A stretch of DNA of 64,000 nucleotides from Octopus vulgaris. Its lineage: Eukaryota. Numbering within the stretch: the stretch's first letter is position 1; each line of letters starts with the position of its first letter. A program made the position numbers and the translations under genes. Where the stretch lies: contig OX597838.1 of the NCBI GenBank assembly GCA_951406725.2, positions 2,976,001 to 3,040,000 of the forward strand. The letters are read 5' to 3'. The notes beneath the pieces are model-generated. The model worked only from the letters and a program-made list of their open reading frames with translations. It was not told the origin of the DNA and made no database searches. Positions 54,916 through 55,623 of this stretch are shown here, one piece after another.

Positions 54916-55106
54916 TATATATATATGCATATATTTTGCGCATGTATGTATATGTATATATGTATATAAATACGCAAATCTCTATGTACATATATACATA
55001 TATAGATATATATGTATAGATGTATGTATATATATACACATATACACAAGCACATATATGCATATATATATATATATCAAAATAAAAACATGATGCGAAG
55101 GATTCA

Positions 55107-55184
55107 GCGGTACATATGTTTCGGGCCTTTATTAGACAGATTTATAACAATGCATAATGTATGTCTGTGGCCTTCTTCAGCCGC
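55107..55184 (-). ncRNA. Type-I hammerhead ribozyme, canonical core, intact stem I
   Basis: GCGG-CTGAAGA-A-GGCC-ACAGA..TCTGT..GGCC-C-GAAAC-ATAT-GTA-CCGC. Confidence 0.75.
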
Positions 55185-55431
55185 GCACAACAGCTTCCAC
55201 AAGGACATGTGTTACATCAAAAATTCTTGCTTGGGGATGCAAATCCTCTCATTCACGTACGACATAATGCGGCAGCAGCATAGAATTGAAGCGTCCATCT
55301 CTTTCTTCTCTCAGAAAGAGATGGACGCTTCAATTCTATGCTGCTGCCGCATTATGTCGTACGCGAATGAGAGGATTTGCATCCCCAACCAAGAATTTTT
55401 GATGTAACACATGTCCTTGTGGAAGCTGTTG

Positions 55432-55509
55432 TGCGCTGAAGAAGGCCACAGACATACATTATGCATTGTTATAAATCTGTCTAATAAAGGCCCGAAACAT
55501 ATGTACCGC
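55432..55509 (+). ncRNA. Type-I hammerhead copy with stem I weakened by the 3-nt deletion
   Basis: TGCG-CTGAAGA-A-GGCC..GGCC-C-GAAAC-ATAT-GTA-CCGC. Confidence 0.65.
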
Positions 55510-55623
55510 TGAATCCTTCGCATCATGTTTTTATTTTGATCAATTTACTCCACCACCTACACCACCAAACGGTATACACAGGTGCTTATAATTATCAAGT
55601 ACTCACCCCGAATTTCTATACTA

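Follow-up and report, generated by a model that had tools for sequence, protein, structure and literature searches.

A palindromic locus of Octopus vulgaris is one of dozens of near-identical stumps of a young Penelope-like element

A stretch of 64,000 nucleotides of Octopus vulgaris DNA, hereafter the window, contains a long and almost perfect palindrome with a hammerhead-like motif in each arm. The question raised by this locus is how such a structure came about and whether it serves any purpose. A sequence-only reading had seen in it a ribozyme with a built-in antisense and an ideal substrate for ADAR and Dicer. Our own answer, which we hold to be probable, is that the palindrome consists of two 5′-truncated pLTR ends, placed head to head, from a young Penelope-like element (PLE) of the Hydra clade, inserted in a TA tract by priming of both strands on one RNA, and likely inert. 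It is not unique but one of dozens of near-identical stumps of that element.

Anatomy of the palindrome and its parent element

When the left half was aligned with the reverse-complemented right half, the arms came out at 55076-55306 (231 bp) and 55313-55540 (228 bp), with differences in three places: a C-C mismatch (55230/55389), an A-C mismatch (55255/55364) and three extra bases in the left arm (55180-55182). The palindrome, the arm lengths and the three differences described earlier were thereby reproduced. The extent first given, 55076-55540, held for the arms and failed at the right end, where element tail continues for about 75 bp to around 55615-55622. The six central bases, previously described as a loop, are not a spacer; they belong to the element copy that forms the left arm, which meets the right arm in a 1-nt overlap. 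The features are collected in Table 1, with element positions counted backwards from the tail end of L093, a copy with the layout pLTR-ORF-pLTR. In tandem full-length copies the tail sequence is found directly upstream of the ORF.

Table 1. Features of the palindromic locus (window coordinates)
Feature	Position	Strand	Remarks
(TA)n target tract, left flank	55060..55075	.	right flank: TA tract also after the tail
Left arm, tail-less 5′-truncated pLTR copy	55076..55313	-	element positions -314 to -77; 3′ end outward
Intact minimal type-I hammerhead	55107..55184	-	stem I GCGG/CCGC, core CUGAAGA, long interrupted stem II, GAAA, stem/loop III self-complementary; cleavage predicted to fall between 55111 and 55110
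Head-to-head junction, 1-nt overlap	55307..55313	.	within the family's turning-point hotspot, -307 to -326
Right arm, 5′-truncated pLTR copy	55313..55540	+	element positions -307 to -77 (with tail: to -2); private 3-nt deletion in hammerhead stem I
DPE-like motif	55323..55328	+	mirror copy 55291-55296 (-); in longer copies at +27 from the Inr-like motif
Second hammerhead	55432..55509	+	core intact; stem I mostly lost through the 3-nt deletion
PLE 'tail', AC-rich, about 75 bp	55541..55622	+	right arm only; end ambiguous between 55615 and 55622

A search of the left arm against its own genome (2.8 Gb, 227 contigs) returned 1,132 candidates, the best-scoring of which were 99-100% identical over the full arm. 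The arms proved identical to the 3′ end of an element encoding a reverse transcriptase (RT) and a GIY-YIG domain, and the PLE origin and the youth proposed earlier are both supported. In the parent, 842-codon stop-to-stop frames were read in 4 of 10 loci (L085-L088), the remaining loci being truncated or broken. The element unit is 4,758 bp (about 4.76 kb) long, with a 3′ region of about 2.1 kb.

When read by eye, the parent ORF showed RT motifs including FDIA and YRDD, DKT instead of DKG, a CxCX5C linker and, at the C terminus, a GIY-YIG-like domain (VIY...YIG) with CxxC and CxH in the endonuclease (EN) and no CCHH; RW is followed by A (RWA) and not by K (RWK). Neither Pfam nor NCBIfam matched an RT or GIY-YIG model to the parent ORF proteins; PF01541 (GIY-YIG) is carried by 2 of the 120 homologues listed. 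The best homologues include Argonauta and Solemya proteins. The family combines RT and GIY-YIG in a single ORF, direct or tandem and inverted pLTRs, 5′ truncation, an optional tail and a pLTR hammerhead, as expected of an EN+ Penelope-like element. Because the parent motifs match those given in section 11 and the supplementary alignment of PMC8557442, the family is, judged by its motifs and (TA)n target with the alignment compared by eye, a Hydra-clade PLE. The Naiad clade was considered and rejected on account of the C-terminal endonuclease.

Inverted pairs, the single tail and the turning points

A 28-mer from the 3′ half of the hammerhead had 1,547 exact matches in the genome and its control none. 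The first 100 of these matches, all on contig C1, fell into 68 clusters that included 28 divergent (head-to-head) pairs and 1 convergent pair; as this sample was chosen by an exact 28-mer, conservation of the hammerhead 3′ half is built into it and older copies are under-represented. Fifteen of the 28 divergent pairs were spaced within 1 kb. When 69 loci covering the 68 clusters were inspected, exactly one arm was tailed in 31/31 divergent pairs, the tailed arms ending at about -2 and the tail-less arms between -70 and -86. Unpaired arms in the same set were tailed in 17 cases and tail-less in 23, and TA flanks were present in nearly all copies viewed. Pair sizes grade up to copies that contain the ORF, and among the long cases the tailed arm is the longer in L104 and L115 and the tail-less arm, by kilobases, in L121 and L130. 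A MITE or TIR DNA transposon was rejected as an identity for the family, the ends being asymmetric in 31/31 pairs and the parent being an RT element. At L162-L163 (G000:C1), three solo pLTR stumps share their flanks and are spaced by about 8.1 kb, probably through a tandem segmental duplication.

Paired arms differed at 48 of 5,956 aligned columns (8.1/kb), far below the mean of 36.4/kb and the minimum of 26.0/kb obtained when partners were shuffled 2,000 times; the arms of a pair therefore come from one source. Such shared haplotypes demonstrate a common source locus and not strictly one RNA molecule.

The position at which the palindromes turn is also restricted. Genome-wide, 34 palindromes, the window's included, turn at -307 to -326, compared with 0, 3, 2, 2 and 13 at five other anchors, counts that are only roughly comparable since the anchors differ in length and polymorphism. 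The anchor with 13 palindromes marks a second cluster just 5′ of the hammerhead, and local structure or microhomology therefore also makes turning points. Twenty of the 34 hotspot palindromes were fetched, and 19 of the 20 were one-tailed (18 by an automated test, L199 by eye). L180 (G000:C21), which has the exact junction of the window palindrome, carries no tail on either arm, so the one-tail rule has an exception; an apparent target-site duplication of about 12 bp was seen at this locus. Where arm lengths could be scored (22 hotspot palindromes with that of the window included; L101, which is without the anchor, L190, L192 and L199, whose tails were missed by the test and seen otherwise, and L180 are omitted), the tailed arm was longer in 12, the tail-less arm in 9 and the two were equal in 1, and no arm extended beyond -326. 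The -314/-326 junction recurs in L183, L194 and L196; recurring junctions lie on different haplotypes, and most of the 34 junctions differ from each other.

The edge of the hotspot coincides with an Inr-like motif whose A lies at -323. The Drosophila DPE lies at +28 and the DPE-like motif of this family at +27. Together the two motifs may mark the start of the element RNA near -323; the Inr-like motif is absent from both arms of the window palindrome. The -323 cluster also overlaps a short imperfect hairpin, so it need not be an RNA end, and that reading is unproven. Junctions with several template jumps were observed in L151 and L152 (G000:C1); in L152 the two arms extend to -324, beyond which pieces of -324 to -226 recur, as run-off of the polymerase at a template end and re-priming would produce. 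Apparent 5′-end clusters at -371/-363, -330 and -532 were discarded because they probably stem from misalignment at TA-like or polymorphic sites.

According to the account that we favour, both cut target strands would prime reverse transcription on one element RNA, one strand at the far site to give the tailed arm and the other about 70 nt upstream to give the tail-less arm. Both cDNAs would traverse the uncleaved hammerhead and stop near the RNA 5′ end, at the Inr/DPE-like start around -323, and microhomology or a template jump would then link the two cDNA ends in head-to-head orientation. The accessible text of PMC11167929 describes an anole PLE that in vitro cuts and extends both target strands, with two internal start sites bounding the tail and an uncleaved RNA, and section 15 of PMC2377424 describes a comparable internal promoter in Drosophila Penelope. 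Ribozyme-cleaved templates were not clearly enriched: two palindromes turn near the cleavage site, and nine TA-flanked ends there are ambiguous owing to TA microhomology. For the broader proposal that the palindromes of this family preserve the PLE insertion reaction as a record in the genome, made from one RNA with two fixed priming sites, both strands and a double strong-stop-like run-off, we put the chances at about even. If it is true, it would explain inverted pLTRs with a one-sided tail, and the element would have seeded near-perfect hairpins in numbers of some hundreds (by extrapolation of the 15 short pairs among 100 matches), which could supply hyper-editing or RNAi in a cephalopod-like genome.

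The main rival, which we consider unlikely but worth weighing, keeps the same element and derives the mirror arm from self-priming: a cDNA or antisense RNA would fold back at a short hairpin and be copied along itself, after which the endonuclease would resolve the ends and leave the tail on one side. Such a route has been proposed for Adineta Penelope in the available text of PMC3846280, and it accounts for the shared haplotypes and for the many near-equal arms with overlaps of 0-6 nt; several junctions also lie at short self-complementary motifs. However, fold-back of a tailed first strand demands that the tailed arm be the longer one, whereas the tail-less arm is longer in 9 of the 22 hotspot cases and exceeds its partner by kilobases in L121 and L130, and a tail-less first strand cannot template the tail.

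Hammerhead motifs, hairpin RNA and the remaining explanations

The claim that each strand encodes a hammerhead agreed with our prediction of a minimal motif in both arms, as did the claim that the 3-nt indel spares the minus-strand ribozyme and weakens the other: the deletion removes most of the plus-strand stem I. Folded alone, 55107-55184(-) adopted the hammerhead with stems I-III as its minimum free energy structure (-11.8 kcal/mol; pair probabilities of 0.75-0.79 for stems I and II). With a few extra flanking bases (55100-55192) the fold was not a hammerhead and was no more stable than shuffled sequences (z 0.94). Rfam gave no hammerhead over the window or over 55070-55620, none being present among the latter's 10 matches at E<=10; the call is accordingly based on the motif, its fold and its conservation in sister families. 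Of 14 loci of those families (about 60% protein identity), 12 have a hammerhead downstream of the ORF with stems that have changed and remain paired, which supports the ribozyme call. In the sister Hydra families (L166-L179) ORFs reach about 980-1,090 codons; an AT-rich loop-2 motif is common to their hammerheads and those of the window family, and the copies viewed end shortly past the ribozyme. According to the accessible sections of PMC4209133, single minimal motifs are inactive in vitro and dimers weakly active. Both hammerheads of the window palindrome are best viewed as minimal-type passengers of the pLTR that would need a partner on the same strand to dimerise and here lie on opposite strands.

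Other motifs were noted in the window. At 12670-12720 (-) lies a second, unrelated minimal hammerhead-like motif with a core, a short stem II with an unpaired A, no loop III and a weak stem I; it is probably left over from a different PLE family. Downstream of the palindrome, a CUGAUGA core at 55965-56015 (+) is a possible but not convincing degenerate hammerhead, and no inverted repeat was present in 55860-56300. Open frames at about 35770-36168 (-), 50800-51120 (-) and 25950-26450 (+) look like LINE remnants, presumably of the restriction-like-endonuclease type.

Read-through RNA of either strand places the antisense arm first, and it is predicted to fold into a hairpin of -428 or -445 kcal/mol in which stem II of the hammerhead has a probability of about 1e-53. 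The masking of the ribozyme in a read-through hairpin that had been foreseen from the sequence is therefore upheld by the predicted fold, and for both ribozymes. Only read-through transcription is to be expected, because both arms lack the Inr-like motif. Such RNA could be a passive ADAR or Dicer substrate, and the locus itself is likely inert. Rfam microRNA models matched over the window and over 55070-55620 all scored below their gathering thresholds; mir-15, the candidate rejected here, reached 44.2 bits against 57.3, as expected from a perfect hairpin. The strongest spurious microRNA matches came from 30389-30502, a perfect, low-complexity palindrome of 114 bp with 57-nt arms and a TA-tract centre. 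A word search of sequencing runs found most words in 20 of the 24 runs listed, with no RNA run among the holders listed; this result has no bearing on expression and, the element being multicopy, does not confirm the individual locus.

Another interpretation holds that selection has made the locus a switch: the ribozyme would be hidden by the antisense arm and exposed again through ADAR editing, and Dicer would generate siRNAs directed at the family. It can draw on the extreme predicted stability of the hairpin and on reports of hyper-editing of PLEs and palindromic repeats in other animals, with the strongest hyper-editing signal in octopus (PMC5625713, in the portions available); similarly, the readable part of PMC3846280 describes antisense small RNAs, mostly piRNA-sized, from A. 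vaga Penelope copies. A regulatory switch selected at this locus nevertheless found no support, and we consider it very improbable. Far from being special, the locus belongs to a set of at least 34 such palindromes with a common turning point. The three arm differences are private or CpG-type changes: the C-C change occurs in 0 of 95 other arms, a gap where the three bases are missing in no more than 1 of 100, and the A-C site is a CpG that reads T in 27 of 94 arms and is discordant between arms in 2 of 31 other pairs scored. Nor would editing relieve the masking as had been suggested. The A-C pair lies outside the ribozyme and arises only in plus-strand RNA, which carries the damaged ribozyme, while in minus-strand RNA, whose ribozyme is intact, the pair is G-U. 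When the edit was modelled as G, the hairpin shifted from -420.2 to -425.6 kcal/mol, so that editing is predicted to stabilise the duplex. Differences between paired arms contained no excess of an editing signature (2 A>G and 3 T>C, 5 of 34), and a crude ORF scan of 84 kb revealed no evident host gene, an intron location being possible.

Slightly less probable again is a palindrome that is itself mobile, as a MITE-like or palindromic non-autonomous PLE copied whole between loci. The exact window junction in L180 and the -314/-326 junction shared by L183, L194 and L196 are what it would lead one to expect, but L180 has another tail status and other variants than the window palindrome, the recurring junctions occur in different haplotypes and most of the 34 differ. 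The sizes, moreover, grade to ORF-containing copies, and the arms, being ends of the pLTR of an RT element, are not the TIRs of a transposase. Long-read fold-back chimeras are a possible source of palindromes, but an assembly or read artefact can be dismissed almost entirely, given arms that differ at three places, a biologically meaningful tail asymmetry and dozens of independent loci with the same architecture and different junctions.

Comparison with known systems

The locus, then, is ordinary, and its family is the useful object, being young, numerous and provided with intact ORFs. The family counts (31/31 one-tailed, shared haplotypes, hotspot) make the origin of PLE inverted repeats testable, and the Hydra clade is thereby added to the groups that show the pattern. 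Published work already describes inverted pLTRs tailed on one side, as well as hammerhead pairs on opposite strands; for the one-tail rule and the junction hotspot, the openly readable literature offers qualitative descriptions and no counts. Inverted 5′-truncated copies with a one-sided tail are the PLE layout described in PMC8557442 (Fig. 2 legend), PMC3846280 and PMC2377424. As far as the available text of these papers goes, their EN+ insertions share with the palindrome the head-to-head arrangement with 3′ ends outward, a tail at one end, a pLTR hammerhead and a microsatellite target. The window insert differs in consisting of pLTR only, which makes it a nearly pure palindrome, and in a tail of about 70-75 bp against 30-40 bp there; in the TA tracts of the window family, a target-site duplication is unreadable.

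The sections of PMC4209133 available describe minimal hammerheads that occur as dual motifs, one on each strand and separated by 100-700 bp. The predicted window motif has in common with them a short helix I, a long helix II, an extra base after core A9, a palindromic loop 3 and the dual opposite-strand placement, but differs in a very long, bulged loop 2, and G10.1-C11.1 forms only with a bulged C in helix II. As for the hairpin, the readable text of PMC5625713 describes heavy hyper-editing of a lizard Penelope and also of palindromic repeats (frog Harbinger); these passive ADAR substrates resemble the palindrome in being self-folding repeats of a few hundred bp.

With the Anolis Poseidon element PAc (PMC11167929, as far as accessible) the window family would have in common two internal RT start sites that delimit the tail, targets rich in AT and an uncleaved RNA template. 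PAc belongs to another clade, the accessible text of that paper gives no account of inverted insertions, and the matching of its two start sites to the two arms of the palindrome is our own inference. A further system for comparison is the Hydra clade, for which the consulted sections of PMC8557442 list (TA)n targeting and an octopus member, Hydra-1_Obim. C-terminal GIY-YIG, DKT, the CxCX5C linker, CxxC, CxH, the absence of CCHH, (TA)n targets and a hammerhead are common to clade and window family. Hydra-1_Obim itself, with its protein compared by eye only, is a different family with another hammerhead, and where members of the clade are typically below 3 kb ('generally short') and carry RWK, the window family measures about 4.76 kb and carries RWA. 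In Octopus vulgaris itself, the repeat annotation given in the accessible part of PMC13282606 contains 31 recently active Penelope-like families.
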